A DNA stretch of 64,000 nucleotides. It comes from Clostridia bacterium (GTDB taxonomy: Bacteria; Bacillota; Clostridia; Oscillospirales; CAG-272). A program made the translations under genes and the position numbers. The stretch lies in the NCBI GenBank assembly GCA_017465885.1, contig JAFTVG010000014.1, forward strand, positions 6,819 through 70,818, in the 5' to 3' direction. Below the pieces are notes generated by a model. The model was not told where the DNA came from. It searched no databases and was given only the letters and a program-made list of their open reading frames with translations. This document shows, piece after piece, positions 2,664 through 44,409 of the stretch; the first letter of the stretch is position 1; every line of letters begins with the position of its first letter.

Positions 2664-2703
2664 AAAAAGAACCTCGGACGTTTTACCGTCCGAGGTTCTT
2701 TCA
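2664..2703. terminator. bidirectional rho-independent terminator between the convergent mannosidase genes
   Basis: 12-bp stem GAACCTCGGACG (2669-2680) / CGTCCGAGGTTC (2687-2698), with an A-run upstream and a T-run downstream. Confidence 0.75.
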
Positions 2704-2708
2704 GTATG

Positions 2709-2849
2709 TCAGGAGTTTATCCCTTCGTTTGTTTTTTTACGCGACGCGCTTTTTTTTGCAACGATCAACACGATCACTGCTCCCACAAGCACTGCAAGCA
2801 CCACGGCGGTTACCGCAAACACTGCGGTGGGGTCGCCTGTAGCGGGAGG
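2709..2849 (-). other. C-terminal cell-wall sorting signal of the GH92 protein (PPATG motif + hydrophobic helix + basic tail)
   Basis: The protein ends ...DPDNPPATGDPTAVFAVTAVVLAVLVGAVIVLIVAKKSASRKKTNEGINS. PPATG (nt 2835-2849) fits the (S/P)PXTG class used by clostridial sortases. It is preceded by a Pro/Glu/Ser linker PPVEPSEPVEPSEPSEDPSEDP. Confidence 0.55.
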
Positions 2850-5800
2850 ATTATCGGGATCCTCGGAGGGATCCTCGGAGGGCTCGGAGGGTTCTACCGG
2901 CTCGGAGGGCTCCACGGGAGGAGTCTGTCCGCCGGGGATCTCATCAAGACCGCCTGCAATATCCTGCTCGCCGATGAATTCCACTTCTGCAAGCGAGCTG
3001 CCGCCAAAGAGGGTCAGCTTATAGAAGCGATAGTTGCCCTGCAGCTCTTCGTCAATCGCGAAGGGTTTGATGAAGTTGTTGCAAAGGAAGGTGATCTCCT
3101 CTTCCTCAAGGACGGTCGCCCAGCTTTCGCCGTCGTTGGATACCTCAAGCTTGAAGGAGGTGGGTGCCTTGTTTACCGTGGAGGAGGTGAGGGTGATCAT
3201 CGAGATCTTGGAGCAGGTGGCGTCAAAGATCAGCTCTTCACCGTCGGAAATGGTGGCGGAGGTCAGGCTGTTGTCGTCAAACAGATCCTTCACCTTTTCA
3301 AGACCGCTTTCGATGGTACTCAGCACCACTGCCAGATCCTTCTTGCCTGCCTCGGGCTTTTGTCCGGGTGCGGTCAGAGAGGTGGGCTCGCTGTCCTCAG
3401 CACTGCCCCACTCGGAGGGCTTTGCACCCATCTCAAACTCGATGGTGCAGCCTGTGCTGAGCATTTCGTGGGTGAGGAACATCTTGTTGTAGCTCTCGCC
3501 ATTGACCTTTGCAGACTGAATGTACACGTTTTCGTCGGAATTGTTATTCGCAACGATCACGATATCGTTGCCGTTATCCAGATGCACGGTCACCTTGTCA
3601 AAGAGGGGAGAGCCGATCACGTATTCGCCCGATGCCACGCTGTAGGGATAGAAGCCCAGAGCGTTGAAGACGTACCAAGCCGACATTTCGCCGTTGTCCT
3701 CGTCACCGGGATAGCCCTGACCGATCTCAGAGCCCACGTATACGTGTCTGAGGACCTCTCTGACGTATTCTTGTACCTTATAGGGAGTGGAGGAGAAGGC
3801 GTAAGTGTAGATCACGTGGTGAGCGGGCTGGTTATTGTGCTCGTACTGACCCATCTTCACTTCCTTGAACTCGCTGATCTCGTGGTGTACCGAAGCCAGC
3901 TCAACCACCTTCTTCATTGCATCGTAGCTGTCATCAAAGAGCTGATCCAGCTTTGCGGAGAGCGCTTCCTCGCCGCCGTACAGGTTTGCAAGACCCTCGC
4001 CGTCAAATACTGCGGGGAAGGCGTTGACCCAACCTACCGACTCGGTGAAGTCGTACTTGTCACCGTTCCACTGTGCAGGATTGAAGTTGGTGGAGGACCA
4101 GATGCCTGCGGTGGACTTGCCCATGAAGAAGTCTGCCTTTTCGTTGAAGAGCAGAGCGTAATTCTTGCAACGGTTGAGGTAGTAAGCCGCCTCGTCCTCA
4201 AGTCCCATCGCCTCTGCCATCTTGTAGATGCCGTAGTCGTTGATGAAGCCCTCAATGGAGCTGGAATATGCCTCTTGCACGAAGGCGCCGGTTACGGGAT
4301 TATCGTTTGCAATGTAGCCCTTATAGGGAGCGGTGTTGTTTTCCTTTCTGCCGCCTGCGGTCATATTGGAGGAGTATGCCGCTGCATTCTTCACCATTGA
4401 CTCAAAGGCTGCCTGATAGTCAAACTCCACGCCCTTGATAAAGGCGTCTGCAAAGATCACGTCGCTGGAGGTACCGACCATACAGTTCACAGGACCGGGA
4501 CCCATCCATCTGGGGATCCAGCCGCTTTCCTTGTAGTGGCCCACGATACCGTCCACGTACTGCCCTGCTCTGTCTGCTGTAAACAGCGAGTAGCCGGGCC
4601 AAGCGGTACGATAAGTATCCCAGAAGCCGTTGTTGGTGTAAAGCATACCCTCGGTCTTCTTGCCGCTCTTATAAGGCGAGCCGTAGACCCACTTGGGTTC
4701 TTCGTTGGTGCCCTCGTTTTCGGAGAAGAGGCTGGGGAATGCGTACATTCTGTAAATGGAGGAATAGAAGGATACCAGCTCGTGATAGCTTGCACCCTCG
4801 ATCTCAAACTTGCCGCACAGATCGTCCCATTCCTTCTGTGCCGATGCCAAAACGGTGTCGAAGGTATCGTTTGCACCGATCTCGAGAGCCAGGTTGTGCG
4901 CCGCCTGATCGTAGCTGATGAAGGAGGTCGCCAGCTTCAAGGTCACCACGGTGGTGCCCTTTTCAAATGCGGCGATGCCCTTGACGCCGCTGACCACAGA
5001 AGCGTCTGCCCAAGCGGTATCAAACTGACCGTAAACGTACATCGCGGGCGAGCCGTGGGAGGTCTTCGCCTTGAAGGTCTTGCCATCCTCAAGGAAGGAC
5101 AGGCTTCCCGAGCCCCACATGCTGTCGAAGATCACGTTTACGTTTTCACTGCCCTCGGGGAAGGTGAAGCGCAGATATGCGCCGTGCAGGGTGGGCGTAA
5201 CCTCGATCTTAACGCCCGATGCGGCAGACCCTTCCTCTAACAAGACGCTGTAGAGATGAGCCGTTGCCTTTTCGTTCTTATGGCTGTAGCCCGCTTCTCT
5301 GTTCTGAGAAGAGATCTGAATCGAGGTGATGCCGTCGGTGCCGTTTTCGGTGTTCACACCGGTGTTGGGCATAAACTGCATGGAGCCGTAGCTTCCGATC
5401 CAGAAGTTGGGGGCGTGGATGATGGAGATAGAATCAAGAGGATTACCCGAACGGGTCTGCTGATAGGTATAAGGCAGAGTGGGGGCGTCAGCGTTGTTCA
5501 CGGGAGTGAAGAAGTTGAAGCCGCCGGGCATAGTCACGCCGGGAGTACACATACCGCGGGAGAAGGCGATATCGTTGTTGGTTCCACGCAGAATGTTGAC
5601 GTAGTCGGAAAGATGTTCGTTTACCACCTCAGCCTTGTCCTCGATCTTCAGATCGTCGAAGAAGGTGACGAAGCGGGAGGCGTCTACCGCATTTTCCATA
5701 TCGAAGTATACGCAGATCTTTTCGATGGTCTTGCCCTCGGCAACCTCACCGATTGCGCTTTCCACGTAGTTCCACTGAGCGGTATACAGGCATTCGCCCT

Positions 5801-11819: not shown

Positions 11820-11883
11820 GGCTATGGGCTACAAAAAAGATATTTTCGGCAGTTTTGTGTATGACTTCGAGCTCTTACAGAAA

Positions 11884-12050
11884 ATGAAATCCTTGCTGAC
11901 GCAAGGATGAAATCAGCTAACGCTGATGAAATCTTCGGCTTTGCCTCAGATGAAATTAAATCCACCCATCCGCCGTCGAGGCGGATTTCACCCAACGAAG
12001 TTGGATTTCATCGTCGAAGACGATTTCACCCACCCGCAAGGGAAGATTTA
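11884..12050. repeat. inverted array of eight heptamers (4 x TGAAATC then 4 x GATTTCA-like) interleaved with mini-hairpins
   Basis: TGAAATC/T at 11885, 11908, 11927 and 11951. GATTTCA at 11985, 12004 and 12022, and GATTTAG at 12045. Spacing is 18-24 bp. Intervening stems are CTTGC/GCAAG, AGC/GCT, ATCCGCC/GGCGGAT, CCAAC/GTTGG, TCGTC/GACGA and CCC/GGG. Confidence 0.8.
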
Positions 12051-12054
12051 GTTG

Positions 12055-12088
12055 AAAACGACAGATTCCTGCCGGAATCTGTCGTTTT
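12055..12088. terminator. bidirectional terminator abutting the 3' end of tRNA-Leu
   Basis: AAAACGACAGATTC-CTGCCG-GAATCTGTCGTTTT, a 14-bp perfect stem with U-runs on both strands. Confidence 0.8.
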
Positions 12089-12089
12089 C

Positions 12090-12175
12090 TGGTGCGAGAG
12101 ACGGGACTTGAACCCGTACGGTGTAAACCACACGCCCCTCAAACGTGCGCGTCTGCCAGTTCCGCCACTCTCGCA
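12090..12175 (-). tRNA. tRNA-Leu (anticodon GAG), class II with long variable arm, CCA encoded
   Basis: Reverse complement reads GCGAGAG..CACGT-TTGAGGG-GCGTG..ACGGGTTCAAGTCCCGT-CTCTCGC-ACCA. Acceptor 7 bp. Anticodon loop UUGAGGG. T-loop TTCAAGT. Confidence 0.9.
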
Positions 12176-32990: not shown

Positions 32991-33215
32991 TCATTGCGTC
33001 GAACGTACCGACTTTCCCATCAACTCATCGATAGAAACGCCGATGATATTCGAGATATCGGAAAGCAGAAAAATATCGGGATAGCAAAGCTCCCTCTCCC
33101 ACTTGGATACGGCAAAGGCACTTACACCCACAAGGCTTCCGAATTCCCCCTGTGTGATTCCCTGCTCCTTACGGTAACACAAGATACGTTCTCCTATACA
33201 GATCTTGTTTTTCAT
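32991..33215 (-). CDS. small XRE-family HTH regulator (74 aa)
   Basis: GERILCYRKEQGITQGEFGSLVGVSAFAVSKWERELCYPDIFLLSDISNIIGVSIDELMG. Confidence 0.85.
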   Translation of the reverse strand: MKNKICIGERILCYRKEQGITQGEFGSLVGVSAFAVSKWERELCYPDIFLLSDISNIIGVSIDELMGKSVRSTQ

Positions 33216-33745
33216 TTTACCCTCTTATACGTTTCGTGATGCCGTGTCATCATTCCGAATGCAATCATTTCACGGCGAATGGTACAATAATCCCCATGAT
33301 AGCGCAAAATGATCTCGTTGACTTCTTGCTCCTCATACGTGCGGGAAGGATCAAACTGCTTTAATATCTCAGCAAGAACGATCTCCCGCTTCTTTCTTTG
33401 CGTGGGAATGCGCGTCAGCCTGCCATATTTGAAAAAGCCGGACAGCACCCCTTTTTTGTACTTTTCTTCGTCATCGACAAGCTCCTCATCCTTTTTTATC
33501 AACTCGTAAAGGGGCTTATCGAAGATCTCACGATTCAGCGAATAGATCATATAAAACTGTGACCGAGAGCAGTTGACTACGCCCGCCGCTTCCATCTTCT
33601 TTAAATGGTAGCAAATGGTTGCAGGGGTGAGTGAAAGGTCACAAGCGATCTTTTCCACGTACGAGTCCTCTTTTAAAAGGATATTGAGGATGTCAAGGCG
33701 CGTTTCATCCGCAAGAAGCTTTAAAAGTTCAAGTTTTTCTTTCAC
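33212..33745 (-). CDS. ArsR-type HTH + DUF2087-like C-terminal domain protein
   Basis: LLKLLADETRLDILNILLKEDSYVEKIACDLSLTPATICYHLKKMEAAGVV, then ...YEEQEVNEIILRYHGDYCTIRREMIAFGMM. The GTG start at 33745 sits after GGAGGG. GTGA overlap upstream and ATGA overlap downstream. Confidence 0.7.
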   Translation of the reverse strand: MKEKLELLKLLADETRLDILNILLKEDSYVEKIACDLSLTPATICYHLKKMEAAGVVNCSRSQFYMIYSLNREIFDKPLYELIKKDEELVDDEEKYKKGVLSGFFKYGRLTRIPTQRKKREIVLAEILKQFDPSRTYEEQEVNEIILRYHGDYCTIRREMIAFGMMTRHHETYKRVK

Positions 33746-34248
33746 GAAAGTCCCTCCGAAAACATCCCTGTGTAAAGATTCTTCTTCACACGCCACTCTT
33801 CCCATGCCTTAAATACGCTTTCACAGGCACCGATCTTGATCTGAAGCTCAAAGACGCTCTCAAAATCCATTGCGGCTTCGGCTTTTTTCAATTCGGCATA
33901 GTATGAATGCACGAACTGATCGCGCATAAAGATCTCTGCCTGCAAAGCTGCAGTGAATACCAACAGTTCCTCTTCATCAAGCTCTGTGAATACCTTGTTT
34001 AAACGCGGATACCTTTGCAGGATCCGTCCGATCACACCGCATCTCTTTGTAAGACAGGATTCACGAGGATCCAAAGCATACCAAAGCAAACCCGCGCGGT
34101 TGCAAAGACCGTACATTTCCCGCTCAATGATCAGTGCCTTGCGTTCAGCCTTGTTTTCTTTAGGTACTGCATCCAAACGGCGTTGGCAGTCGTTATACCT
34201 TTCCGTAACAATGTCATACATTGCCTTATCAATTTCTAAAGCGGTCAT
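33742..34248 (-). CDS. hypothetical helical protein (168 aa), first gene of a three-gene translationally coupled unit
   Basis: The ATG at 34248 sits after AAGGAGGG. No domain recognised. Confidence 0.65.
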   Translation of the reverse strand: MTALEIDKAMYDIVTERYNDCQRRLDAVPKENKAERKALIIEREMYGLCNRAGLLWYALDPRESCLTKRCGVIGRILQRYPRLNKVFTELDEEELLVFTAALQAEIFMRDQFVHSYYAELKKAEAAMDFESVFELQIKIGACESVFKAWEEWRVKKNLYTGMFSEGLS

Positions 34249-34384
34249 TCTTTTCCCTCCTTTTATGAATACGTGCTGTCTTGTGATCACACTGATATTA
34301 TACACATCTAATCACTTTTTGTCAATAGTGTTTCGATATGTTTCTAATCAATTAAACCAATGGTTTAAAATCAAAGATACTGTA

Positions 34385-35191
34385 TTATTGGCGGGAAAGC
34401 ACATTGTCAATTGATAAACGGTATTCATCGGCATCTATCCCCGAAATTGCAAGCTCATCCACGTGTACCATACCCTCCAAGGGTATTCCGTCATGTGAAA
34501 GTTGTAGGACAGATTCTCTAAAAATCTGATAATACAAAACGGCGTTTAGTTTTAATCTATTTTGTAGCTTTTCACCATTATGGATATATGTCAGCATATA
34601 TTCACGAGTACAGCGTGGGCCGGGCATTTGATATGCCAGATCAAGAGCCTTTTCCGTCATGCCAAGATCTGCGTATGTCACCAGCAATATTTGTTTTGCA
34701 GAATCACGCCAGCGTTCTTCGGTGCAACGTGCAAGAATGTCTTCACAGAGCGAGATCGCTTCTTCAAACAACTTGTATTTTTCGGATTGGTCAAGCGTAT
34801 TCTTTCCTTTCCATGACAGATCAGAGGCAAGCAGCTGCTCCAAGAAAAACACGCCCGGTACTTCCTTTAGCGCATTTCGAACCAATTCAATGCCTTCATC
34901 CAATTTGTAATTTTTGTCCAGCGGAACATGGTGGCGAAGGCTGTTATATTCTGCAGTAACATCATCTATTCTTCGTTGCTTGGTTAGTTCATCCACACCG
35001 AGAAGATCGTCGACCGAAACATGAAAATAGCCTGCAATCTTGGGCAGTAGGGTAATATCAGGATATCCGTCATTCCTTTCCCACTTGGAAACAGCTTGAG
35101 ACGATATTCCAAGAAAAAGCGCAAGCTCATCTTGTGTTTTTTCGTTTTGTAAACGCAAAGATTTCAGTCTTTTTGAAAGTTGTATCTCCAT
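34385..35191 (-). CDS. XRE HTH + helical-repeat (TPR-like) regulator, 268 aa
   Basis: N-terminal LKSLRLQNEKTQDELALFLGISSQAVSKWERNDGYPDITLLPKIAGYFHVSVDDLLG followed by ~200 aa of helical repeats. Visibly AT-richer than its neighbours. Confidence 0.8.
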   Translation of the reverse strand: MEIQLSKRLKSLRLQNEKTQDELALFLGISSQAVSKWERNDGYPDITLLPKIAGYFHVSVDDLLGVDELTKQRRIDDVTAEYNSLRHHVPLDKNYKLDEGIELVRNALKEVPGVFFLEQLLASDLSWKGKNTLDQSEKYKLFEEAISLCEDILARCTEERWRDSAKQILLVTYADLGMTEKALDLAYQMPGPRCTREYMLTYIHNGEKLQNRLKLNAVLYYQIFRESVLQLSHDGIPLEGMVHVDELAISGIDADEYRLSIDNVLSRQ

Positions 35192-35530
35192 TATTTTTTC
35201 CTCATATTTTCATAAATTAATTGCAATGATCATCGCAGTGTTATTATACCATGTTCTACGAGTATTAACAATAACGGGAAAGTTGTATTAAGGTTGTAAA
35301 AAACAACCTTGCGTTTAATTCAAACATTTATACTCAATCAGACCAACACATACCCTTCGATTTGGCTTATCAAAAAACTCTTCATTCTTGTCTGCCAAGG
35401 ATTCTTTAACAAAACAAAGATCCCTGACAGTTTTTAAGCTATCAAGGATCTATCGTGCTTAACTTTAGAAACTTATATTATTTACTTTTATTTTGGTCCC
35501 AAAGGTAAAAATGCATTTTTTGAAAATTCC

Positions 35531-37260: not shown

Positions 37261-37289
37261 TTGACAACAGGAAGAAAGTGTGGTATACT
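37261..37289 (+). promoter_or_regulatory. sigma-A promoter of the tRNA-Leu/tRNA-fMet operon
   Basis: TTGACA (37261-37266), 17-nt spacer, TATACT (37284-37289). Confidence 0.75.
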
Positions 37290-37310: not shown

Positions 37311-37399
37311 GCCGGTGTGGCGGAATAGGCAGACGCCCGGGACTTAAAATCCCGTGAGACTTAAATCTCGTACCGGTTCGACCCCGGTCACCGGCACCA
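37311..37399 (+). tRNA. tRNA-Leu (anticodon UAA), class II, CCA encoded
   Basis: GCCGGTG...CGGGA-CTTAAAA-TCCCG...long variable arm...CCGGTTCGACCCCGG-CACCGGC-ACCA. Confidence 0.92.
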
Positions 37400-37430
37400 C
37401 ACCAACGTGTGATTCACCAAAACCAAATAT

Positions 37431-37507
<77 letters not shown>

Positions 37508-37543
37508 AAAAGAAAAGTCGCGCAAGCGGCTTTTTCTTTTTGT

Positions 37544-37672
37544 ACTTTTCACTATTCTCTTTTCACTCTTCACTTTTCTCTAAATCTCCCGCGCGACTTT
37601 TCCAGAGAAGAGATAAGAGGGAAAAGAGAAAAGAAAAGGTAGCCTTTCTCCCTTTGGTCGAAAAGCATTGAT
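37544..37672. repeat. structured intergenic repeat, copy A (diverged)
   Basis: Pyrimidine arm ACTTTTCACTATTCTCTTTTCACTCTTCACTTTTCTC, a loop, then purine arm GAGAAGAGATAAGAGGGAAAAGAGAAAAGAAAAGGTA. It shares CTTTTCACTATTC and AAAAGGTA with copies B and C. Confidence 0.7.
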
Positions 37673-37696
37673 TTTTAGTTAAAATCGTGGTATAAT
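37668..37696 (+). promoter_or_regulatory. promoter (extended -10) for the first island module
   Basis: TTGATT (37668-37673), 17-nt spacer, TGG-TATAAT (37688-37696). Confidence 0.65.
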
Positions 37697-37721
37697 CATA
37701 TTACAGAGTGAGGTGAAGACA

Positions 37722-38069
37722 ATGAATAGCCCATTACTTGAAAAGTCTATGGACTTTGCAACGCAGATTGTACTTTTCTACGAGGAGTTTTCAAAGAGTA
37801 AAAAGGATACGACGATCGCAAAGCAATTATTGCGTTCTGCTACAAGTGTAGGTGCGAACATAAACGAAGCGATTTACGGAAACAGTAAGGCAGATTTTAT
37901 TTCTAAATTACATATTTCTCTCAAAGAAACGGGCGAAAGTATTTATTGGCTCACCTTGTTGAAGCGCACAAATTTAATTGTTTATGATTTTGATAAGTTG
38001 CTTTCGTTAGCCGAAGAAATCAAACGAATGCTGATCGCTTCTCTTAATACTGCTAAGGAAAACAAATGA
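37722..38069 (+). CDS. four-helix-bundle protein (23S rRNA-IVS protein / Avd-like family)
   Basis: LLRSATSVGANINEAIYGNSKADFISKLHISLKETGESIYWLTLL is the hallmark of this family. SD GAGGTG lies 6 nt before the ATG at 37722. AT-rich. Confidence 0.8.
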   Translation: MNSPLLEKSMDFATQIVLFYEEFSKSKKDTTIAKQLLRSATSVGANINEAIYGNSKADFISKLHISLKETGESIYWLTLLKRTNLIVYDFDKLLSLAEEIKRMLIASLNTAKENK

Positions 38070-38500
38070 AAACTCTTTATACTGCTTTCAAAGGTAAAAA
38101 TAACACCTCTTATCAGCTTGTTTCACGCATTGATAAGAATTCACTGTTTTTAACCAATTCTTTTACCGGCCTTGAAAAAGATATTACGAGCCTTGATTGT
38201 GATTTTGATACCGTGTATATGTTTGGCATTGACAAAAACTTGGTTAATGAAATTCGTATAGATCTTTGTGCTTGTTATAATTGTGAGCATATATGTACTG
38301 ATTTTTATTTGTTGCCTTTTGAAAGAAAACTAATCGAATCAAACATTCCATATTCTATTTCAAGTATTCCAACCAAATATTTATGTAATGCAGCTTATTA
38401 TCACATGTTGAAAAAGAATTCAAATACCGTTTTTATTCATATTCCGTCACTAAGGGGTATGAACGAAACGTTAATGAACAGATTGGCAGAGATGTTTTGA
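38066..38500 (+). CDS. short pyroglutamyl-peptidase (C15)-like protein, 144 aa
   Basis: ATGA overlap with the upstream gene. KYLCNAAYYHML and VFIHIPSL align with the Cys and His segments of Pcp (TFVCNHLFY, GFIHIPY). About 70 aa shorter than canonical Pcp. Confidence 0.45.
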   Translation: MKTLYTAFKGKNNTSYQLVSRIDKNSLFLTNSFTGLEKDITSLDCDFDTVYMFGIDKNLVNEIRIDLCACYNCEHICTDFYLLPFERKLIESNIPYSISSIPTKYLCNAAYYHMLKKNSNTVFIHIPSLRGMNETLMNRLAEMF

Positions 38501-38508
38501 AATGCATC

Positions 38509-38692
38509 TTTTTCGGCACCTCTACTCAAAAAAAATCCTCGGACTTGTTCCGAGGATATTTTTTTACCTCTTCACTTTTCACTCTTCACTCTTCACTTTT
38601 TTCCCTTCGCAGATGAATTTTTTTGGAAGTAATAAGTAAGAGTGAATAGTGAAAAGGTATTTGATGTAGCTTTTTGTCACGGCAAAAAGCAT
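38509..38692. repeat. structured intergenic repeat, copy B
   Basis: Order of parts: ATCTTTTTCGG; terminator hairpin ATCCTCGG-ACTTGTT-CCGAGGAT + T7; pyrimidine arm CTTCACTTTTCACTCTTCACTCTTCAC; ~45-nt loop; complementary arm AAGAGTGAATAGTGAAAAGG; hairpin GCTTTTTG-TCACGG-CAAAAAGC. Positions 38527-38583 are identical to 40838-40894. Confidence 0.85.
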
Positions 38693-38801
38693 TTTTCGTT
38701 TTCTCACTTTTTCAAAACTCGAAAAATAGTCAAAATAAAAAGATATCATTTCCCCAAAACGACCTTTGGGGAGGACTTGAACTAAATACTTGAGCTTTTA
38801 G

Positions 38802-38844
38802 GAGCAGACACCGCGAACATAATCGCAGTGTCTGCTCTTTTTTT
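38802..38844 (+). terminator. orphan rho-independent terminator upstream of the PadR promoter
   Basis: GAGCAGACAC-(16 nt)-GTGTCTGCTC followed by T7. No ORF ends in front of it. Confidence 0.6.
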
Positions 38845-38874
38845 GATTTCTTTTTGATGTTTTTGCAAAATCTA

Positions 38875-38904
38875 TTGACAAAAATCAATACTTCGTGCTA
38901 TGAT
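38875..38904 (+). promoter_or_regulatory. promoter of the PadR operon
   Basis: TTGACA (38875-38880), 17-18 nt spacer, TATGAT. The ATGT-N5-ACAT half-palindrome just downstream may be an operator. Confidence 0.55.
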
Positions 38905-38928
38905 GTATAACACATAGGGAGGTATGTT

Positions 38929-39249
38929 ATGGATATTCAGTTAAAACGAGGTCTTTTAGATGTATGCGTGTTGGCTGCGATTAAAAGCGAGGATTCATAT
39001 GGATATAAGATCATTAAAGATATGAAGCCGTACATTGAACTTTCTGAATCCACTTTATATACCATTTTGAAGCGCTTGGAAATTGCAAATATGCTGACCG
39101 TCCGCACCGCAGAACATGGCGGCAGACTTCGGAAATATTACCGGATAACCGGTGAGGGACTAAAACGTATTGAAGATTTCAAGGATGAGTGGAAAGAAAT
39201 TCTGTCTATATATCGATTCGTAACCAAGGAGGATAATGGCAATGAGTAA
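38929..39249 (+). CDS. PadR-family transcriptional regulator
   Basis: LKRGLLDVCVLAAIKSEDSYGYKIIKDM...LYTILKRLEIANMLT...RKYYRITGEG. Confidence 0.9.
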   Translation: MDIQLKRGLLDVCVLAAIKSEDSYGYKIIKDMKPYIELSESTLYTILKRLEIANMLTVRTAEHGGRLRKYYRITGEGLKRIEDFKDEWKEILSIYRFVTKEDNGNE

Positions 39250-39841
39250 GCAAGAGTTTCTTGTGCAATTACGCAAAGGATTGTCAGGCTTTCCGCAAGA
39301 GGACATTGAGGAACGCGTGACGTTTTACAGTGAAATGATAGATGATCGAATTGAAGAAGGTATTACGGAGGAAGAAGCTGTTGCGGCAATAGGCACGGTT
39401 GATGAAATCGTTAAACAGGTAATAGCGGAAACGCCTCTTGCGAAAATCGCAAAGAAAAAAATTAAATCTAAAAGACGGTCGCGTGTGGGTGAAATTGTCC
39501 TCTTGGTTCTCGGCTCTCCAATATGGCTTTCGCTTCTGATTGCCGCATTTGCCGTAATTCTTTCGCTTTATGCCTCGTTATGGTCTGTGGTAATTTCCTT
39601 GTGGGCTGTTTTCGGTTTGCTTATTGGCTGTGCGTTCGGCGGCGTTGTAGCAGGGGTTGTCTTTGCTTGTAGCGGCAATGCTCCTTCGGGAATCGCCCTG
39701 CTTGCCGCAGGTATTGTATGTGTAGGGCTTTCCATCTTTATGTTCTACGGATGCAAAGCAGCAACAAATGGCACCTTGATACTCACAAAGAAAATGGCAA
39801 TATGGACTAAGAATTGCTTTATCAAAAAGGAGGTAGCATAA
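39242..39841 (+). CDS. DUF1700 membrane protein (PadR-associated)
   Basis: MSKQEFLVQLRKGLSGFPQEDIEERVTFYSEMIDDRIEEG followed by 4 TM helices. AAGGAGGA spacing favours the ATG at 39242 over 39236. Confidence 0.8.
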   Translation: MSKQEFLVQLRKGLSGFPQEDIEERVTFYSEMIDDRIEEGITEEEAVAAIGTVDEIVKQVIAETPLAKIAKKKIKSKRRSRVGEIVLLVLGSPIWLSLLIAAFAVILSLYASLWSVVISLWAVFGLLIGCAFGGVVAGVVFACSGNAPSGIALLAAGIVCVGLSIFMFYGCKAATNGTLILTKKMAIWTKNCFIKKEVA

Positions 39842-40806
39842 TGAGAACGAGAACAAAAGTATGGCTTATTATAGCAGCTTCTTTTGTGTTGGTTGGGGGT
39901 CTCATTTTTGGAGGTGTAATGTCAATGCTTAAATGGGATTTTACGAAATTATCAACGGACGAATACGAAACCCATGATTATGAGATTGATGAAAATTTTA
40001 ATAACATATCGATTATAACAGATACAGCCGATATTTTATTTGTGCCTTCTGAAAACCAAAAAACTTCCGTTGTCTGCCACGAACAGAAAAATATGAAGCA
40101 TTCGGTTACAGTGCAGAACGGCAAGCTTGTAATTGAGATCGTTGATACGCGGAAATGGTATGAATATATCGGTATAAACTTCGGCACGCCGAAAATAACA
40201 GTATATATTCCGCAGGGCGAATATGGTGCGCTTTTGGTGAAATCCAGTACCGGTAACGTAGAAATACCCAAAGAATTCAAATTCGAAAATATTGATATTT
40301 CGGAAAGCACAGGCAATGTAACGAACTATGCTTCCGCTTCGGAAAATATAATAATCAAGACAAGTACAGGCAATATTCGTGTTGAAAATGTATCCGCAAG
40401 CACACTTGATCTTTCTGTTTCAACGGGCGGTGTTGCGGTTTCTAATGTAACCTGCGAAAGCGATGTTAAAATTAGTGTTTCCACCGGAAAGACGAATCTG
40501 ACAAATATCAGGTGTAAAAATGTTGTGTCGACTGGAAACACGGGAGAAATATCCTTAAATAATGTTATTGCCGCAGAAAAGTTTTCTATTGAAAGAAGTA
40601 CAGGTGATGTAAGATTTGAAGGTAGTGACGCTACTGAAATATCTGTAAAAACCGACACCGGTGATGTTACCGGCACATTGCTTTCAGAAAAGGTGTTCAT
40701 TACGGAAACCTCTACCGGCAGCATCAATGTACCTAAAACAACATCAGGTGGAAAATGTGAGATTACAACCTCGACCGGTGATATTAACATAAGCATAAAG
40801 AAGTAA
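39841..40806 (+). CDS. DUF4097 (putative adhesin / beta-helical) protein with N-terminal TM
   Basis: Iterated STGN(V/I)...STGD(V/I) beta-strand repeats. TAATG stop-start junction with the upstream gene. SD AAGGAGG. Confidence 0.8.
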   Translation: MRTRTKVWLIIAASFVLVGGLIFGGVMSMLKWDFTKLSTDEYETHDYEIDENFNNISIITDTADILFVPSENQKTSVVCHEQKNMKHSVTVQNGKLVIEIVDTRKWYEYIGINFGTPKITVYIPQGEYGALLVKSSTGNVEIPKEFKFENIDISESTGNVTNYASASENIIIKTSTGNIRVENVSASTLDLSVSTGGVAVSNVTCESDVKISVSTGKTNLTNIRCKNVVSTGNTGEISLNNVIAAEKFSIERSTGDVRFEGSDATEISVKTDTGDVTGTLLSEKVFITETSTGSINVPKTTSGGKCEITTSTGDINISIKK

Positions 40807-40813
40807 ACAAGCC

Positions 40814-40990
40814 GATATCTTTTTCGGTGCGACTTGCCAAAAAAAATCCTCGGACTTGTTCCGAGGATATTTTTTTACCTCTTCACTTTTCACTTTTCTC
40901 CTTCCGTCGAGGAATTTTTTGGAGGTAATAAGTAATAGTGAATAGTGAAAAGGTATCGGATATAGCTTTTTGTCATGGCAAAAAGCTTTT
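40814..40990. repeat. structured intergenic repeat, copy C
   Basis: Same architecture as copy B. Shares the 57-nt identical core and a highly similar (by eye) right half (GGAGGTAATAAGTAATAGTGAATAGTGAAAAGGTATCGGATATAGCTTTTTGTCATGGCAAAAAGC). Confidence 0.85.
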
Positions 40991-40994
40991 TTAT

Positions 40995-41084
40995 TATAAA
41001 TTTCCTGTATATGATATTTTAAAGGATCATCCCAGGTACGTGGAGCTTCTTGAAAAGTTGAAGAATTCAGATAGATGTGACTAA
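40995..41084 (+). pseudogene. possible C-terminal gene remnant (…FPVYDILKDHPRYVELLEKLKNSDRCD*) between repeats C and D
   Basis: Open frame without an ATG, ending at the TAA at 41082-41084. It sits where a cassette gene would be expected. Confidence 0.25.
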
Positions 41085-41154
41085 CCGCATTATATCAATA
41101 GCTACCGAAAAACGTTCACTGCGGCTTGATATATGCGACGATCTTCCTATATTT

Positions 41155-41300
41155 CCATCTTTTTCGGCATCTCTATCATAAAATCTTCTCGAACAAAGTC
41201 CGAGAAGGTTTTATTTTTTCACTTTCCCTCCGTCCTTTTCCCTGAATCTCTCCTCGACTTTTCTGAGCAGTGATAAGGTAGAGGATGCTTGATGTAAGAC
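41155..41300. repeat. structured intergenic repeat, copy D (diverged)
   Basis: CCATCTTTTTCGGCATC, then hairpin CTTCTCG-AACAAAGTC-CGAGAAG + T-run, then TTCACTTTCCCTCCGTCC..., then GATAAGGTAGAGGATG. Same order of parts as copies B and C. Confidence 0.6.
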
Positions 41301-41472
41301 CCCCTTTTATAGTCTCTGCGGGTAATGCGGATTGATGTCTTATTCTCAATTTAAACTCGCTTTTGAAGCGAATTATTCTCTCTGTTTCGGTGATTGTCAA
41401 GTTCCGTTATTTATGATACAATATACACAAAGGATGTGCACACCGAAAAATATTTGATGAGGAATCGTAACT

Positions 41473-42528
41473 ATGGAAAACAATTTAGGCAAAAAAATCA
41501 GAGAATTGCGTCGCGCAAGGGATATGACACAAGAACAGCTTGCGGACTGTCTGAACGTATCCTATCAATCGGTCAGTAAATGGGAAACGGGCGTGGCGAC
41601 ACCCGATCTGTCTTTCATAATTCCCTTGGCAAGATTGTTCGGTATATCTACCGATGCGCTTTTGGGATTTGAGCAGTCTAAAGAAGAGCTGTTGAAAAAA
41701 GAATACTTGGATGCGTATGAGGAAACCTGGAAAAGCGGCGATCTTGAAAAGCGCTTGGAAATCTGCCGCAGTGCTGTTCGTGAGTATCCCGGTGATATGC
41801 AGTGGATGACGCGGCTGGCAATGGCTCTTGATATGCATTGCTTTTCTTACGAGGATAATGAACGGTATCAAGCGGAGCGTGCACAAGCAATTCAATGCTA
41901 TAAAATCGTGATTGAAAACGCAACCGACGAAAAGCTTCGGGAGAATGCAATTGCAGCCATTGTACAGCAGCTATCTTATGCGGGACGAAAGGAAGAGGCA
42001 ATGGAATATGCGCTTCTCTATCCCGAAGAAAAGCGAGATGAAATCGAACAGTATTATCTTGAAGGCGAGGAGTTAATCAAGCACAAGCAAAAGCTTTTAA
42101 AGAAGGAGTACGGGCATCTTTTGTCAAAGCTCAATTACTTTTTTGATGAGTACCACCTTCAAATCGCGGTTGGTATCATCAAGCTGTTTTTCCCCGATGA
42201 AAACTACCTTGACAAGCATTATATTCTGTTTGTTTATGAGCTTACAAACAGCAAGAAAGCGTTAAAGGAGGAGCGGTCTTCAGACGCCTTGGCGCATCTG
42301 AAAAAAGCCAAGCATCATGCAGCCGAGATGGATAAAATCGAGTTTGACGCACCGGGTGAATATCGTTATACCGCCCCTTTGTTTGACAAGCTTACGGTCG
42401 ATACAAGCACGTTTTTGCACACGAACGACGGTCCCGCCCTCAAAGAGCTTGCAAAGCAATTGGAGAATCCCGAGTTTGACGTGCTGCGTAGTGATGACAG
42501 ATTTCAAGATTTGATATGCTCGTTATAG
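41473..42528 (+). CDS. XRE HTH + TPR-like helical-repeat regulator, 351 aa
   Basis: IRELRRARDMTQEQLADCLNVSYQSVSKWETGVATPDLSFIIPLARLFGISTDALLG followed by ~280 aa of helical repeats. Promoter TTGTCA-17-TACAAT lies upstream. Confidence 0.8.
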   Translation: MENNLGKKIRELRRARDMTQEQLADCLNVSYQSVSKWETGVATPDLSFIIPLARLFGISTDALLGFEQSKEELLKKEYLDAYEETWKSGDLEKRLEICRSAVREYPGDMQWMTRLAMALDMHCFSYEDNERYQAERAQAIQCYKIVIENATDEKLRENAIAAIVQQLSYAGRKEEAMEYALLYPEEKRDEIEQYYLEGEELIKHKQKLLKKEYGHLLSKLNYFFDEYHLQIAVGIIKLFFPDENYLDKHYILFVYELTNSKKALKEERSSDALAHLKKAKHHAAEMDKIEFDAPGEYRYTAPLFDKLTVDTSTFLHTNDGPALKELAKQLENPEFDVLRSDDRFQDLICSL

Positions 42529-42625
42529 GTTATTTCTGTTTTTCTCCTAAGTAAACACAAGCAATACGGTGGTGCTTTGCCCGAAAGCAAAAAGCTTGCC
42601 GAATATAAATATAACAGATAACAAA

Positions 42626-42666
42626 TAACAGACAACGGACACCGCGGGGGTGTCCGTTGTCTGTTA
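42626..42666. terminator. bidirectional terminator between convergent genes
   Basis: TAACAGACAACGGACACC-GCGG-GGTGTCCGTTGTCTGTTA. Confidence 0.8.
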
Positions 42667-44409
42667 TTAAAGGTCTGTTTTTACGTTTTGACAGTGCTCT
42701 TCCCTTGTGGCGGTGGTAGCGTGCATACCAAACCACCTATTGCCCTCAACCAAAACGTTCTTGCAGTAGCGCAGGCACAGGGGGGCTTTGTTTTCGGGCT
42801 GATAGGAGATCGACGGGCTTTTGAAGATGCGGTTTTCTGAAAAGACCAGATCCTTACAAGAAAAGGCGTAAAGCAGCGGGACACCCACAGTATCGAAAAC
42901 GTTTTCCGTGATACGGATATTCTTATGGAAGGGCTTTTCCTCCTCGGGGGATGGCACCACGGGACAGATGCTGATCACCCCGTCGCAAAACTGATAGATG
43001 GAGGAAAGGCAGGCACTTGTAAAGACGTTGCGGGAGATCTCCACGTCGTGGCACTCCCCCGACTCAAACCAATAGTTGGCATCACCCGCCACGAGGATCG
43101 CAGATCCCGAGGATTCAAAATAGTTGTCTGTGATCTTCACCGGTTTGGGTGTGGAAACGAGAACTCCCCTTGCGCGGCAGCTGCCAAAGCGGTTGTTCGT
43201 GCAGACAAAGGCTGCGGTATGGGTCAGATTGTCCAGTGCCAGCCCATCCCCTTCCCTTGCCTTTTCAAGGATCTCTTGAGGCAGAGGTCGATCAAAGGTC
43301 AGCAAGAAGGTCATTCTGTCTTCAAGGATATAGGACGAAACGATCGCATTGCCGATCGACTCCATTGAGGCACGGTTGATAAAGGAGATCTCGTTGCCCT
43401 GCTCTGCCCAGTATAAAAAGCCGCATGCCTGATGGTGGCGGAAGTTACAGCGAAGGGTGCGCTCGTCCACCACCTCGTCGGAGGTAACCGAGCATCCGTG
43501 GACGTTTATGGGATCGTCCATCAAGGCGTGGAAGGTGCATTCGGTGATGGTGACCGTACCCGCATTGCAGGTGATATGCATTCCGTCGTCCCTTCCCCCC
43601 GAAACCAATCTGCCAAGGCTCTTGTCGGTCAGGAAATGCACCCCTTTATAGGTCATATTGCGGCAGAACTGAGAAAGACAGCCAAGCCCTCCGCAGGAAT
43701 AAAAAACAATGTTTTCCACGGTAATATCCGAGCATTTCTCGCTGAAAACGCCTGCGTGGATACGGGGACAATGGCGCATATTCAAGAGGTCGCCCTCGTG
43801 AATATTCTCATCTCCGTAAAGAGTCATCCGATACACCGACCCACCCAGATCTCTGATGCTCTTGATGCAAACGTCGCTCACGTCGCGGCGGGCAAGCAGT
43901 CCGTGGGGCTCGAAAACGATGGTGCTTTTGCCAAAGGCGTACCACTCGTCCGCTCCGACGTCAAACTCAAGATTGTCCCCCGTAAAGCGGTGTGGGAAGC
44001 ATTCCGGATCGATATACACGTCCATTTCCCATCCCTTTTTGGAAACCACCCGTCCTTCTGCGGCAAGAGGCTTTTTCCAGTTGACGGTGAAGCCCTCAAG
44101 ACTGACCTTTTCACAGTGGTCAAGGGTAAAGACCTGCATCTGCCCCGACAGCCAAAGGCGGGCACCGTTTCCCTTCAAGGCGCAGTTTTTCATATCCTTC
44201 AGAAGGATCGCCAGAGTGCGCAGGGGGATAACGTCTGTATTTGAAAGACGGTAGTCAGCCTGCAAGGCGTTGGTTGGCGAAAAATAGTAGTCGCCATCCT
44301 CAAAAAGAAATTCGGTATCCTCCTTATACCCCTCAAAGAGAGCACGAAGCGAGGCGGTGATATCGGTGTTTGGCAGGATGCCGTGATCTTTCAAGCGGAC
44401 GGTCTTCAT
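42667..44409 (-). CDS. right-handed parallel beta-helix protein, putative glycoside hydrolase (GH110-like?)
   Basis: 580 aa, no signal peptide. Repeated short beta-helix turns (…ITVENIVFYSCGG…, …VTITECTFHALMDDPINVHG…, …FVCTNNRFGSCRARGV…). N-terminus resembles beta-helix glycosidases. Family assignment is tentative. Confidence 0.5.
   Translation of the reverse strand: MKTVRLKDHGILPNTDITASLRALFEGYKEDTEFLFEDGDYYFSPTNALQADYRLSNTDVIPLRTLAILLKDMKNCALKGNGARLWLSGQMQVFTLDHCEKVSLEGFTVNWKKPLAAEGRVVSKKGWEMDVYIDPECFPHRFTGDNLEFDVGADEWYAFGKSTIVFEPHGLLARRDVSDVCIKSIRDLGGSVYRMTLYGDENIHEGDLLNMRHCPRIHAGVFSEKCSDITVENIVFYSCGGLGCLSQFCRNMTYKGVHFLTDKSLGRLVSGGRDDGMHITCNAGTVTITECTFHALMDDPINVHGCSVTSDEVVDERTLRCNFRHHQACGFLYWAEQGNEISFINRASMESIGNAIVSSYILEDRMTFLLTFDRPLPQEILEKAREGDGLALDNLTHTAAFVCTNNRFGSCRARGVLVSTPKPVKITDNYFESSGSAILVAGDANYWFESGECHDVEISRNVFTSACLSSIYQFCDGVISICPVVPSPEEEKPFHKNIRITENVFDTVGVPLLYAFSCKDLVFSENRIFKSPSISYQPENKAPLCLRYCKNVLVEGNRWFGMHATTATREEHCQNVKTDL

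Follow-up and report, generated by a model that had tools for sequence, protein, structure and literature searches.

What arranges the genes behind a tRNA-Leu/tRNA-fMet operon in a Clostridia bacterium, where four related folded repeats divide AT-rich DNA into modules? The window, the whole 64,000-nt stretch analysed here, contains an island (37507–42600) with a GC content of 39.3% versus 52–53% in its flanks, bearing out the compositional shift that a preliminary description had noticed by eye. That description proposed an integron-like layout or, failing that, a species-specific intergenic repeat. Its interpretation is partly supported: discrete gene modules do stand in tandem, anchored at a tRNA gene and with repeats marking their boundaries. 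We put at about two in three the probability that the region consists of small, non-autonomous insertion cassettes, arrayed in tandem, that target the base 3′ of the CCA of tRNAs and tmRNA in gut Clostridia (Oscillospirales-like MAGs). These cassettes have a regular anatomy and exact junctions, occupy many target tRNAs, vary between strains and lack a linked recombinase. We found no description in the literature of cassettes targeting tRNA/tmRNA CCA ends in this way.

Anatomy of the structured repeats

The array is anchored at the CCA end of a tRNA gene. Downstream of a promoter-like site (TTGACA-17-TATACT, 37261–37289; all features are on the plus strand unless noted), the operon encodes tRNA-Leu(taa) (37311–37399) and tRNA-Met(cat) (37431–37507). 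ARAGORN output limits of 37430–37506 for the latter, and the sequence together with Rfam places its CCA, the array anchor, at 37505–37507. Two hallmarks of initiator tRNAs can be read directly from the gene, namely a C1:A72 mismatch and an anticodon stem with GGG/CCC, which makes the fMet label reasonable.

Four elements follow this anchor at the places first reported, with refined limits. Including the right-end motif discussed below, they span 37508–37667 (A), 38503–38692 (B), 40811–40990 (C) and 41155–41300 (D), with folding z scores against shuffled sequences of −3.4, −6.4, −6.6 and −3.1, respectively. The 57-nt core shared by B and C is exactly identical (38527–38583 = 40838–40894), and the part order given earlier is correct: leader, terminator hairpin, pyrimidine arm, loop, purine arm and small hairpin. 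Exact copies of the leader ATCTTTTTCGG start at 38506, 40817 and 41157, which are 5, 10 and 72 nt past the stop codons preceding B, C and D, also as described; the minus strand holds a fourth, likewise exact, at 56893. Some details required correction. The unpaired hairpin loop is about 22 nt long rather than ~45 nt, and element A, previously placed at 37544–37672, exists, but that start omits a terminator hairpin directly after the CCA.

The core of each element is a structured region (SR) comprising an intrinsic terminator, a ~35-bp pyrimidine/purine hairpin of 7-nt units and a small hairpin, usually with a promoter next. SR A (A-type, 37508–37667; profile E = 5e-37) opens with the terminator hairpin (37512–37535) and a T-run, followed by a pyrimidine heptad arm (37543–37581), a loop (37582–37603), a purine arm (37604–37639) and a small hairpin (37640–37666). 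Its loop bears GCGCGACTTTTC (37591–37602), which is fully complementary to the 5′ arm of the terminator. SR B (B-type, 38529–38692; E = 1e-23) has a bidirectional terminator (38535–38557), a pyrimidine arm (~38566–38603), a loop holding an imperfect copy of the terminator 3′ arm, a purine arm (38627–38659) and a small hairpin (38669–38690). SR C (B-type, 40840–40990; E = 7e-18) repeats this order, with a terminator at 40846–40868, a pyrimidine arm, a loop containing CGAGGAATTTTTT, a purine arm and a small hairpin at 40964–40987. SR D (41179–41300) is a decayed copy: it retains a terminator-like hairpin (41185–41207), its heptad arms are degenerate, and it does not match the sequence profile built from related copies.

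As a rule the loop repeats the 3′ arm of the terminator perfectly, and the two vary together. Across 24 haplotypes, 382 of 386 positions of the loop and the terminator 5′ arm are Watson-Crick complementary and covary, and 9/9 arm/loop matches occur in 64% of cognate pairs versus 1.5% of non-cognate pairs. The first hairpin, also called a terminator by a consensus scan, folds as plus-strand RNA at −19.4 versus −14.9 kcal/mol, is more stable in that form in 33 of 36 copies, and has 31 G-U wobbles in the arms examined. The heptad hairpin gave no plus-strand RNA signature, and the ambiguity of its pairing register leaves little covariation of the classical kind. Past the small hairpin, promoter-like sites stand where a promoter would be expected.

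Cassette cargo and boundaries

Each module in the window carries different cargo, and the gene families first named were recovered. Cassette 1 begins with a promoter-like site (TTGATT-17-TATAAT with TG, 37668–37696), found at the matching position in all loci with its first gene. This gene (37722–38069) encodes a 115-aa four-helix-bundle (4HB) protein, annotated as "four helix bundle protein" (PF05635, the 23S rRNA intervening-sequence protein family, E = 3e-25; PDB 2RLD, 1e-22). It overlaps by 4 nt with a gene for a 144-aa C15-like protein (38066–38500). Although the Pfam match of the latter is weak (E = 0.023), all eight of its weak PDB hits are pyroglutamyl peptidase I, with alignments that span the catalytic Cys and His motifs; this weak but consistent resemblance suggests a remote, shortened relative of pyroglutamyl peptidase I (C15). 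Cassette 2 has a promoter-like site (TTGACA-18-TATGAT, 38875–38904) and a PadR triad as cargo (38929–40806): PadR (38929–39249), HAAS/DUF1700 (39236–39841) and DUF4097 (39841–40806). Cassette 3 (40991–41154) is only a coding remnant, with an ORF (40938–41084) that begins inside the purine arm. A further promoter-like site (41394–41422) precedes a gene for a 351-aa HTH_3 regulator (41473–42528), the last AT-rich gene ahead of a convergent terminator (42624–42668); this gene may be part of the array. A separate sigma-70-like promoter thus serves each of the 4HB, PadR and HTH_3 modules, and a terminator stands at the start of each unit. Among related loci the 4HB protein is by far the commonest cargo, with or without the C15-like gene, a homologue of which follows it in 11 of the loci L140–L188; other cargoes are the PadR-HAAS-DUF4097 triad and small membrane proteins.

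A conserved right-end motif closes each cassette. This motif, ATATCTTTTTCGG followed by ~12 nt with CA at the end, closes cassette 1 at 38503–38528 (TGCATCTTTTTCGGCACCTCTACTCA), cassette 2 at 40811–40839 (GCCGATATCTTTTTCGGTGCGACTTGCCA) and cassette 3 at 41155–41178 (CCATCTTTTTCGGCATCTCTATCA), and that of cassette 2 recurs downstream of DUF4097 homologues in three other genomic contexts. Where the preliminary description had each module ending in a folded repeat, the repeat instead combines the 3′ end motif of the preceding cassette with the 5′ module of the following one. On this reading, elements A to D are the 5′ SRs of consecutive cassettes, and in B, C and D the SR comes after the motif that closes the cassette to its left.

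Single-cassette loci define the unit. There it spans from the base after the CCA to the right end, ...ATATCTTTTT[CT]GTAGCCCATAGACA, beyond which each site has a different, site-specific terminator hairpin (L147/L176, L179, L186, L188, L171). This hairpin is the native terminator of the tRNA; unoccupied tRNAs on those contigs have such terminators directly 3′ of their CCA. The units measure only 0.6–2.3 kb, with an intact native terminator immediately beyond them.

Target tRNAs and strain polymorphism

The same composite is found behind many different tRNAs. Related loci were collected by way of the 4HB or DUF4097 protein or of the heptad motif, and the counts given here cover these sampled loci rather than whole genomes. 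Among them, an SR lies directly 3′ of the CCA at 37 distinct tRNA/tmRNA genes, which represent 13 tRNA families as well as tmRNA and have 34 upstream contexts unrelated to one another. Of 74 distinct SR instances, 51 begin at a called tRNA/tmRNA end, and most of the others are preceded by an uncalled ...CCA or by a right-end motif whose last letters are ACA or CCA. The genes for one 4HB protein, P0089, identical at every site, are found behind tRNA-Gln, tRNA-Val, tRNA-Ser and tmRNA, each time with a near-identical SR starting right after the CCA, and wherever the 4HB gene lies behind a tRNA it is preceded by a matching SR. The 90% cluster of the 4HB protein has 1226 members, versus 8–19 for neighbouring host genes, and most 4HB homologues are on short contigs with the repeats at their ends.

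At one and the same tRNA, strains and species differ in the cassettes they carry. In a strain with 98% identical flanks (L153), a cassette for a 109-aa membrane protein replaces the 4HB/C15 pair at the same tRNA-fMet; a relative at ~90% identity (L156) has a B-type SR and a 161-aa gene. In L263 the PadR cassette directly follows tRNA-Leu/tRNA-fMet, and L264 has an additional PHP_C cassette relative to L261–L263 with an identical DUF4097 protein. The 5′ module is exchangeable: in the window the PadR cassette carries a B-type SR, but in L263 and L267 its 5′ module is a plain hairpin/terminator. The first SR of L153 is a hybrid, its left half matching A in the window and its right half that of its own cassette, with the breakpoint in the hairpin loop. 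The hybrid and the exchangeable module therefore indicate that homologous recombination between repeats also reshuffles arrays; unit boundaries could lie inside the hairpin.

These features suggest a route by which such arrays may form. A cassette consists, in order, of a terminator, a ~35-bp imperfect heptad hairpin whose loop copies the terminator 3′ arm, a short hairpin, a sigma-70-type promoter, cargo and the right-end motif. Because insertion parts the tRNA from its native terminator, the intrinsic terminator of the cassette would take over termination of the tRNA transcript, a putative terminator/insulator role. Repeated insertion would stack cassettes behind the tRNA in a presumed direction of growth; in the window they stand in the order 4HB/C15, PadR triad, remnant and decayed copy. 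Insertion may be catalysed in trans by an enzyme that recognizes a tRNA-like 3′ end or the folded element. We count in favour of this scheme the decay with distance from the tRNA, seen in the remnant state of cassette 3, the degenerate D, and the bare right-end/terminator remnants behind intact cassettes in L141 and L179.

Alternative explanations

An accretion of remnants of classical tRNA-integrating islands is unlikely. Tyrosine or serine integrases encoded on larger elements would have inserted one island after another at the tRNA 3′ end, and the islands would then have lost their integrases and tRNA-fragment repeats, leaving the repeats as conserved island ends. Partial tRNA 3′ fragments do occur, as a duplicated tRNA-Tyr 3′ half in L192, a pseudo tRNA-fMet 3′ half ahead of an SR with a duplicated 265-nt trailer in L267, and a degenerate T-arm (GAGTTCGAAT) near the right ends in L189 and L147, so that integrase events of the classical type must play a part in some cases at least. 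Isolated recombinases near a few arrays fit as well: L140 has a large serine recombinase, L261 a tyrosine integrase 2.7 kb from the array and L272 a resolvase fragment. However, one unit stands behind targets that share only the CCA end, whereas each known integrase is restricted to a single target sequence. The window's island lacks any direct repeat of the 3′ end of tRNA-fMet, and short units followed by an intact native terminator also argue against island remnants. As first noted, ORFs of at least 90 aa in the window include no integrase or transposase, nor any reverse-transcriptase family. Recombinase, transposase and reverse-transcriptase families are likewise absent from the listed families of 232 ORF clusters within 7 kb of cassettes, where no recombinase family recurs and all recurring families are housekeeping.

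It is improbable that the repeats are ordinary dispersed REP/MITE or terminator-associated sequences whose adjacency to genes is incidental. The bare heptad-hairpin pattern YTYTTCACTYTTCACTYTTC does occur in at least 120 stretches from species-representative genomes of many phyla, most of those listed lying between ordinary genes and off tRNAs, and contigs break at the repeats. Within the window, however, the heptad motif CTTCACTTTTCAC has 13 matches with at most two mismatches, versus 2.1 expected, and 11 of these fall within A, B and C in the 4-kb island. The full composite, in which a terminator is followed by a pyrimidine-first hairpin with the loop copy and then by a small hairpin, is not species-specific: it occurs in many species of gut Clostridia and, among sampled loci, is confined to the 3′ ends of tRNA/tmRNA genes and to cassette junctions, where a right-end motif precedes it. 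It also moves together with promoter, cargo and right-end motif, and the elements do not in general have terminal inverted repeats.

An integron-type array whose integrase is encoded elsewhere (a CALIN), with attC-like sites ending promoterless cassettes, is very improbable. Tandem modules with a folded imperfect palindrome at every boundary, the strain differences in cassette content and the L153 hybrid, whose breakpoint in the loop would be expected from crossing over within a folded site, all resemble such an array. Yet the island contains no R″(RYYYAAC)...R′(GTTRRRY) pair versus 1.2 expected, and neither the window nor the surroundings of 80 related loci yielded an IntI. Integron attC sites conserve shape with variable sequence, whereas the arms here are conserved 7-nt pyrimidine/purine repeats. 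Three modules have their own promoters, a terminator opens each unit, and single-cassette units are bounded by the CCA and the right-end motif, not inside the hairpin.

Equally improbable is a primary identity as structured RNA (a small RNA, or a tRNA/mRNA processing or stability element) with the cassette layout secondary: the strong folds of A to D, the arm/loop covariation and the window's other tRNA, followed by a terminator and then a Gut-1 RNA motif, would suit it, but the element matches no Rfam family at gathering score, its heptad hairpin is no more stable on the transcribed strand, its place between terminator and promoter means that most transcripts should lack it, and the right-end motif and variable cargo are left unexplained. 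An RNA role is compatible with insertion cassettes as an added layer.

Repeats of the same kind also occur outside the Clostridia. In Prevotella, the PF05635 protein family is bracketed by such 7-nt repeats, which points to a cross-phylum association of the two.

A cassette array behind the tRNA-Leu/tRNA-fMet operon

The AT-rich island of the window belongs to a real family of cassettes that is specific to the 3' ends of tRNA and tmRNA genes and carries a heptad hairpin, with arms built from 7-nt pyrimidine or purine repeats, at its front end. Through its cargo the family is related to the PF05635 proteins of ORF-bearing 23S rRNA intervening sequences (IVSs), and the array resembles, in function, a site-specific cassette array. 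We found no description in the literature of this family or of bacterial elements that insert downstream of tRNA genes.

The array is anchored at a tRNA-Leu(taa) gene (37311-37399) and a tRNA-Met(cat) gene whose CCA lies at 37505-37507. Read from the sequence, the latter has a C1:A72 mismatch and GGG/CCC in the anticodon stem, which we take to be initiator hallmarks. From 37507 to about 42600 the GC content is 39.3%, against 52-53% in both flanks. The preliminary description had placed four related elements here (A, 37544-37672; B, 38509-38692; C, 40814-40990; D, 41155-41300), with a 57-nt core common to B and C and a fixed order of parts; all four are present, the core identity is exact and the order stands. 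Two details needed correction: the loop of the heptad hairpin measures about 22 nt instead of about 45, and a terminator hairpin opens element A too, directly after the CCA. Heptads matched 13 times in the 64 kb window, with 2.1 matches expected by chance, and 11 of the 13 fall inside A, B and C. All four copies fold with much greater stability than their shuffled versions (z -3.1 to -6.6).

Gene content also agrees with the first reading of the island. The first cassette encodes a PF05635 four-helix-bundle protein (4HB; Pfam E = 3e-25; PDB 2RLD E = 1e-22) and a remote C15-like protein, and the second encodes PadR, HAAS and DUF4097 proteins. In the window, the ORFs of the first cassette are bracketed by the purine arm of A and the pyrimidine arm of B. 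B, C and D are each preceded by a right-end motif (RE) that ends in CA; the sequence ATCTTTTTCGG, earlier taken for the leader of the elements, is real and is in fact the RE of the preceding cassette. Decay grows with distance from the tRNA, running from the intact 4HB/C15 and PadR cassettes to a coding remnant and a degenerate copy of the repeat, and two related loci (L141, L179) have the same trend. Such a gradient would fit repeated insertion at the tRNA-proximal end.

Among relatives the island varies, so the invariance that would have counted against the preliminary description is not seen; cassettes are present or absent in L153, L156, L263, L264 and L267 relative to the window. Behind the same tRNA-fMet, strain L153 (98% identical flanks) carries an A-type structured region (SR, the composite front end of a cassette), a promoter, a gene for a 109-aa membrane protein, an RE and a second SR; the relative L156 (about 90% identity) has an SR of the other kind, B-type, with a 161-aa gene. 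In L263 the PadR cassette stands directly behind tRNA-Leu/tRNA-fMet with no 4HB cassette. L264 has an additional PHP_C cassette compared with L261-L263 despite an identical DUF4097 protein. In L267, tRNA-fMet is followed by an additional element of 265 nt, then by a B-type SR with a 4HB gene, and finally by the PadR cassette; the 4HB protein encoded there is only 47% identical to that of the window. Evidence also points to homologous recombination, and at times integrase events, in the reshaping of arrays. Cassettes create strain-variable micro-islands with regulators and membrane proteins in abundant gut Clostridia, and they break metagenome assemblies at tRNA loci.

Two further inserts accompany these arrays. 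An element of about 265 nt, GC-rich, with a terminator at its start and a pseudo tRNA-fMet 3' half (T-arm, acceptor strand, CCA) at its end, lies between cassettes in L267 (2267-2544 and 5504-5765), L261 (about 950-1195) and L264 (2570-2740); in L267 it is duplicated, with one copy on each side of the array, and the copies of L267 and L261 had no Rfam match. In the window, a second AT-rich stretch (33058-35530, 35-45% GC) lies about 2 kb upstream of the tRNA operon and carries a 268-aa HTH_3 regulator resembling the island's 351-aa HTH_3 regulator. Because this stretch is missing in strain L153 and rearranged in L151, L155 and L159, it is another strain-variable insert.

Placement, unit ends and folds

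Cassettes occupy one precise position relative to stable-RNA genes. The loci compared came from searches with 4HB, DUF4097 or the heptad motif, a metagenome scan contributed 80 further loci, and nearly all are fragmented metagenome or MAG contigs. At nearly all loci with enough upstream sequence, the 4HB start codon lies 158-290 nt past the end of a same-strand tRNA or tmRNA gene. This interval is always one composite SR, comprising an A-run, terminator hairpin, T-run, pyrimidine heptad arm, loop, purine heptad arm and short hairpin, and then a sigma-70-like promoter. SRs begin directly past the CCA of 37 distinct tRNA/tmRNA sequences in 34 unrelated upstream contexts, and their targets span 13 tRNA families plus tmRNA. 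Where tRNAs form an operon, the SR stands behind the last of them, and internal tRNAs and the few unoccupied ones have plain terminators after the CCA. The 4HB variant P0089 recurs unchanged behind tRNA-Gln, tRNA-Val, tRNA-Ser and tmRNA, in no fewer than four unrelated contexts. Close homologues of the protein number in the thousands, mostly on short contigs; clustered at 90%, it has 1226 members, against 8-19 for adjacent host genes.

The right end is equally well defined. Units of 4HB and C15-like genes end in ...AAAATATCTTTTT[CT]GTAGCCCATAGACA, and the sequence past this RE differs at each site. At several sites a terminator hairpin comes next, the tRNA's own, which places the unit precisely between the CCA and the native tRNA trailer. 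The internal SRs of L189, L244, L166 and L153 are preceded by REs too, with ACA or CCA as their last bases. The motif accompanies cargo unrelated to 4HB as well: for the PadR-HAAS-DUF4097 triad (78-88% identical), AAGCCRATATCTTTTTCGGTGCRACTTGCCA stands directly past the DUF4097 stop in two further genomic contexts, and a third context (L272) has the RE in diverged form.

Front ends also occur in duplicated, permuted and interrupted forms. Tandem or partial SR duplicates lie between tRNA and 4HB gene in L214 (6571-6966) and in L217, L218, L223 and L239 (for example L218 6531-6862); some tRNA-Tyr loci have two full copies, and L214 has three partial copies about 89 nt apart. The SR of L238 (1407-1563) is permuted to CCA, terminator 5' arm, purine arm, small hairpin, terminator 3' arm and pyrimidine arm. 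There the order of the heptad arms is inverted relative to all other copies, and the 4HB start codon comes next with no promoter between. IS elements lie just downstream of SR hairpins in L132/L134 (about 2360-3990), with a DDE_Tnp_1 transposase between SR and 4HB gene, and in L201 (about 200-570), with an IS3-like OrfA, which suggests that the SR hairpin region is itself an insertion hotspot.

The first two hairpins of the SR differ in strand preference. The first is predicted to behave as a plus-strand RNA terminator: it contains G-U wobbles, is more stable as plus-strand RNA in 33 of 36 copies (-19.4 vs -14.9 kcal/mol), and is called as a terminator by a consensus scan too. For the heptad hairpin we saw no plus-strand preference, and it is slightly more stable on the minus strand. 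Its arm consensus (MAFFT alignment, RNAalifold) has only 13 pairs at about 0 kcal/mol, since several pairing registers are open to the repeats, and we therefore make no covariation claim for the heptad arms. We describe the heptad hairpin only as a conserved, strongly folding, imperfect pyrimidine/purine hairpin.

A sequence copy ties the two hairpins together. The loop of the heptad hairpin always holds a copy of the terminator 3' arm, and this copy matches the terminator 5' arm by Watson-Crick pairing at 382 of 386 positions (mean length 10.7 nt, 24 haplotypes); over those same positions the real 3' arm has 31 G-U wobbles. Full 9/9 matches between arm and loop occur in 64% of cognate pairs but in 1.5% of pairs across terminator classes, with the haplotypes related by descent, and so not independent events, and falling into about 10 distinct arm classes. 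Where a single substitution has occurred, as in L196 and L209, arm and loop change together. The pairing may reflect an alternative RNA fold, a feature of synapsis at the DNA level, or a footprint left when the unit is made.

Other structural candidates at the cassette ends did not hold. A tRNA-like right end is contradicted by the lack of an Rfam tRNA match and by folds no better than shuffles (z -0.6 to -0.9). Terminal inverted repeats are not a general cassette feature, since only the PadR cassette has, at its left end, a significant inverted copy of its right end. At the Rfam gathering score the only matches were tRNA, tmRNA and Gut-1 RNA, the last elsewhere in the window; SRs gave only sub-threshold, hairpin-like matches.

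Relation to known mobile elements

One close comparison is with the 23S rRNA IVSs. Both share the PF05635 cargo family, a tie to a stable-RNA gene and a long imperfect hairpin, and both exist in ORF-less ('solo') hairpin forms (L048, L017, L049, L056). In Prevotella/Bacteroidales the ORF is enclosed by an inverted repeat, as in IVSs. Unlike IVSs, the cassettes lie behind tRNA and tmRNA genes instead of within a 23S helix, have their own terminator and promoter, bear arms of 7-nt repeats and form arrays with unrelated cargo. Their ORF is not enclosed by the hairpin stem: in the window and in other Clostridial elements both heptad-hairpin arms lie upstream of it.

Single-strand transposition of the IS200/IS605 type, including PATEs, provides a lead for the mechanism by analogy. 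The comparison uses general features of those elements. Shared with them are a fixed orientation to the target strand, insertion 3' of a short ...CA, no clear target duplication, passenger genes, and hairpins near both ends (the terminator on the left and CCGAnnnnTCGG in the RE). Differences are that the 64 kb window has no Y1 HUH transposase, that the cassette ends are only putative cleavage sites, and that a target of 2-3 nt alone cannot explain the restriction to tRNA ends.

A search around the cassettes yielded no candidate catalyst. As the preliminary description had remarked, the ORFs of the window include no integrase or transposase, and they include no reverse transcriptase (RT). ORFs of at least 200 aa within 7 kb of cassettes formed 233 clusters, of which 232 had a representative searched against Pfam. 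Recurring neighbour families were all housekeeping, and no recombinase, transposase or RT family was among the families listed for the 232 clusters. Isolated recombinase genes are present in L140, L261 and L272. The plasmid collection gave no cassette match, and the phage collection gave one, of 98 nt, to a gut phage record.

An integron-like layout without an integrase was the original interpretation of the island. Its cassette idea was right, and its integron identity was wrong. Integrons and CALINs likewise have tandem cassettes at one anchor, a folded imperfect palindrome at each boundary, strain-variable content and no catalyst encoded within the array. An attC signature is missing, with no R''(RYYYAAC)/R'(GTTRRRY) pair spaced 45-150 nt on either strand of the island against 1.2 expected; the arms are 7-nt pyrimidine/purine repeats, no IntI was found in the window or near 80 related loci, and the anchor is the CCA of many tRNA genes instead of attI. 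Integron cassettes are also promoterless and carry their site at the 3' end, whereas here promoter-like sites lie between SR and cargo. The SR accompanies the 4HB gene on its 5' side at every tRNA site, each unit opens with the terminator of its SR, and at least three modules have a promoter-like site of their own.

Classical tRNA-integrating islands do not match either. Tycheposons of Prochlorococcus are an example of tRNA-targeting islands with tandem accretion, and the cassettes resemble such islands in being AT-rich, anchored at a tRNA and made of successive units with variable cargo; some related loci (L189, L192, L267) also hold partial tRNA fragments. Such islands have one-tRNA specificity and an integrase within them or at their end. 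The cassettes use 37 target sequences from 13 tRNA families plus tmRNA, an integrase is absent from the window, and recombinase genes occur singly in L140, L261 and L272. Units are shorter than 2.5 kb, and the junction lies exactly after the CCA instead of inside the tRNA. The window has no direct repeat of the tRNA 3' segment, and the RE GGTGCRACTTGCCA only loosely resembles the tRNA-fMet end CCGCAACCA.

A MITE or REP family, a scattered repeat, is contradicted by composite copies that, in the sampled loci, lie only at tRNA/tmRNA ends or cassette junctions, and by inverted ends confined to the PadR cassette. A diversity-generating retroelement (DGR), which would combine an RT and TR/VR repeats with 4HB as its Avd accessory protein, does not match: no RT family occurs in the window or among the families listed for neighbour clusters, and the repeats beside the 4HB gene are those of the SR.

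Heptad repeats, PF05635 and Gut-1 RNA

Heptad hairpins extend far beyond this lineage. The bare pattern gives at least 120 matches in species-representative genomes of many phyla, and those listed include Prevotella, Saprospiraceae, Gemmataceae, Acidobacteriota, Nitrospirae, Synechococcus and Akkermansia. Most listed matches are hairpins between ordinary genes, adjoining neither tRNAs nor 4HB genes. The idea that every heptad hairpin adjoins a 4HB gene thus fails: among the 120 matches listed an adjacent PF05635 ORF occurs only in L129 and L055, with one more about 4 kb from the hairpin in L038, and the neighbours of the remaining loci are ordinary genes. A tRNA link is likewise confined to the Clostridial loci. 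We found no description of the repeat sequences, or of 4HB/IVS proteins together with repeats, in the literature.

The converse association, from 4HB gene to heptads, appears strong in a small sample of sequences. Four distinct Prevotella/Bacteroidales contexts have the PF05635 gene between purine heptads, which abut the ATG, and pyrimidine heptads immediately past the stop; the units in L246-L260 and L129 are (AGTTAAA/AGTGAAR)n at the ATG and (CTTTTCA/CTTTTAA)n past the stop codon. Heptad number varies by strain at one locus (4, 5 and 7 in L249, L254 and L250) and reaches about 15 at L259. In Sulfurovum (L055) a 4HB remnant has purine heptads on its upstream side, the 7-nt repeats in Chitinophagales (L038) differ in sequence, and two Clostridial 4HB lineages only 47% identical both have a heptad SR.

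These associations would allow a broader reading, to which we give roughly one chance in five: PF05635 genes and 7-nt-repeat hairpins would belong to a single class of very small selfish elements, spread across phyla and living on stable-RNA genes and in intergenic regions, with 23S rRNA IVSs as one branch and the tRNA/tmRNA-trailer cassettes as another. Insertion would proceed without an element-encoded recombinase, guided by structure or RNA to the mature-tRNA-like CCA end. Possible routes would be priming or template switching at the CCA-3' end, or recognition of a folded, tRNA-like DNA. The covarying pairing of terminator arm and loop might be part of the recognition or synapsis step, and a pentameric 4HB protein might bind the heptad arms.

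If true, targeting of essentially any tRNA or tmRNA 3' end with single-base precision and no recombinase of its own would be a bacterial counterpart of the targeting of Pol III genes known from eukaryotic retrotransposons; we found no description of such a mode in bacteria in the literature. To our knowledge, the function of the PF05635 '23S rRNA intervening-sequence protein' and the spread of IVSs are still not known. Three observations supply a concrete sequence partner for the IVS-protein question: 7-nt repeat hairpins accompany the family in every case, in both Clostridial lineages and in Bacteroidota; repeat number is strain-variable; and ORF-less hairpins occur.

The cassettes may also account for the orphan Gut-1 RNA motif, which would then be an element of tRNA trailers. 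Behind the window's other tRNA, tRNA-Leu(gag) (12090-12174, minus strand), a strong terminator (GAAAACGACAGATTCC...) lies right past the CCA, and next past it comes a full-length Gut-1 RNA (RF01706; 11980-12054, minus strand; 70 bits). The original description (Weinberg et al. 2010, PMC2864571) has Gut-1 as an orphan motif confined to samples from the human gut. Its covariance model had no match to SRs, and Gut-1 was seen once, with no further copies behind tRNAs in 22 related loci. Like an SR of the same genome, it stands directly behind a tRNA and a similar terminator and has hairpins with heptamers; unlike an SR, it has three short hairpins between the heptamers and no evident cargo. GUGAAAU heptamers stand between the Gut-1 hairpins, inverted AUUUCAU units come after them, and the region as a whole (11880-12174, minus strand) folds with z = -7.9. 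In this Clostridia MAG, Gut-1 appears to be a tRNA-trailer element.

Heptads elsewhere take several forms. Several Prevotella/Bacteroidales PF05635 genes are wedged between other same-strand genes, and Prevotella hairpins combine an outer heptad stem with an inner one whose complementary sequence is unique. An array of more than 300 nt of purine-rich 7-8-nt units (AGTGACA, AGTGAAG, AGTTACA) occupies about 4399-4738 of L028 (Clostridium sp. UBA701), and the part inspected shows no obvious inverted counterpart. Matches to YTYTTCACTYTTCACTYTTC (L011-L130) are intergenic hairpins with arms (GTGAARA)n and (TYTTCAC)n, and some of the genomes that carry them, such as those of Gemmataceae, are GC-rich.
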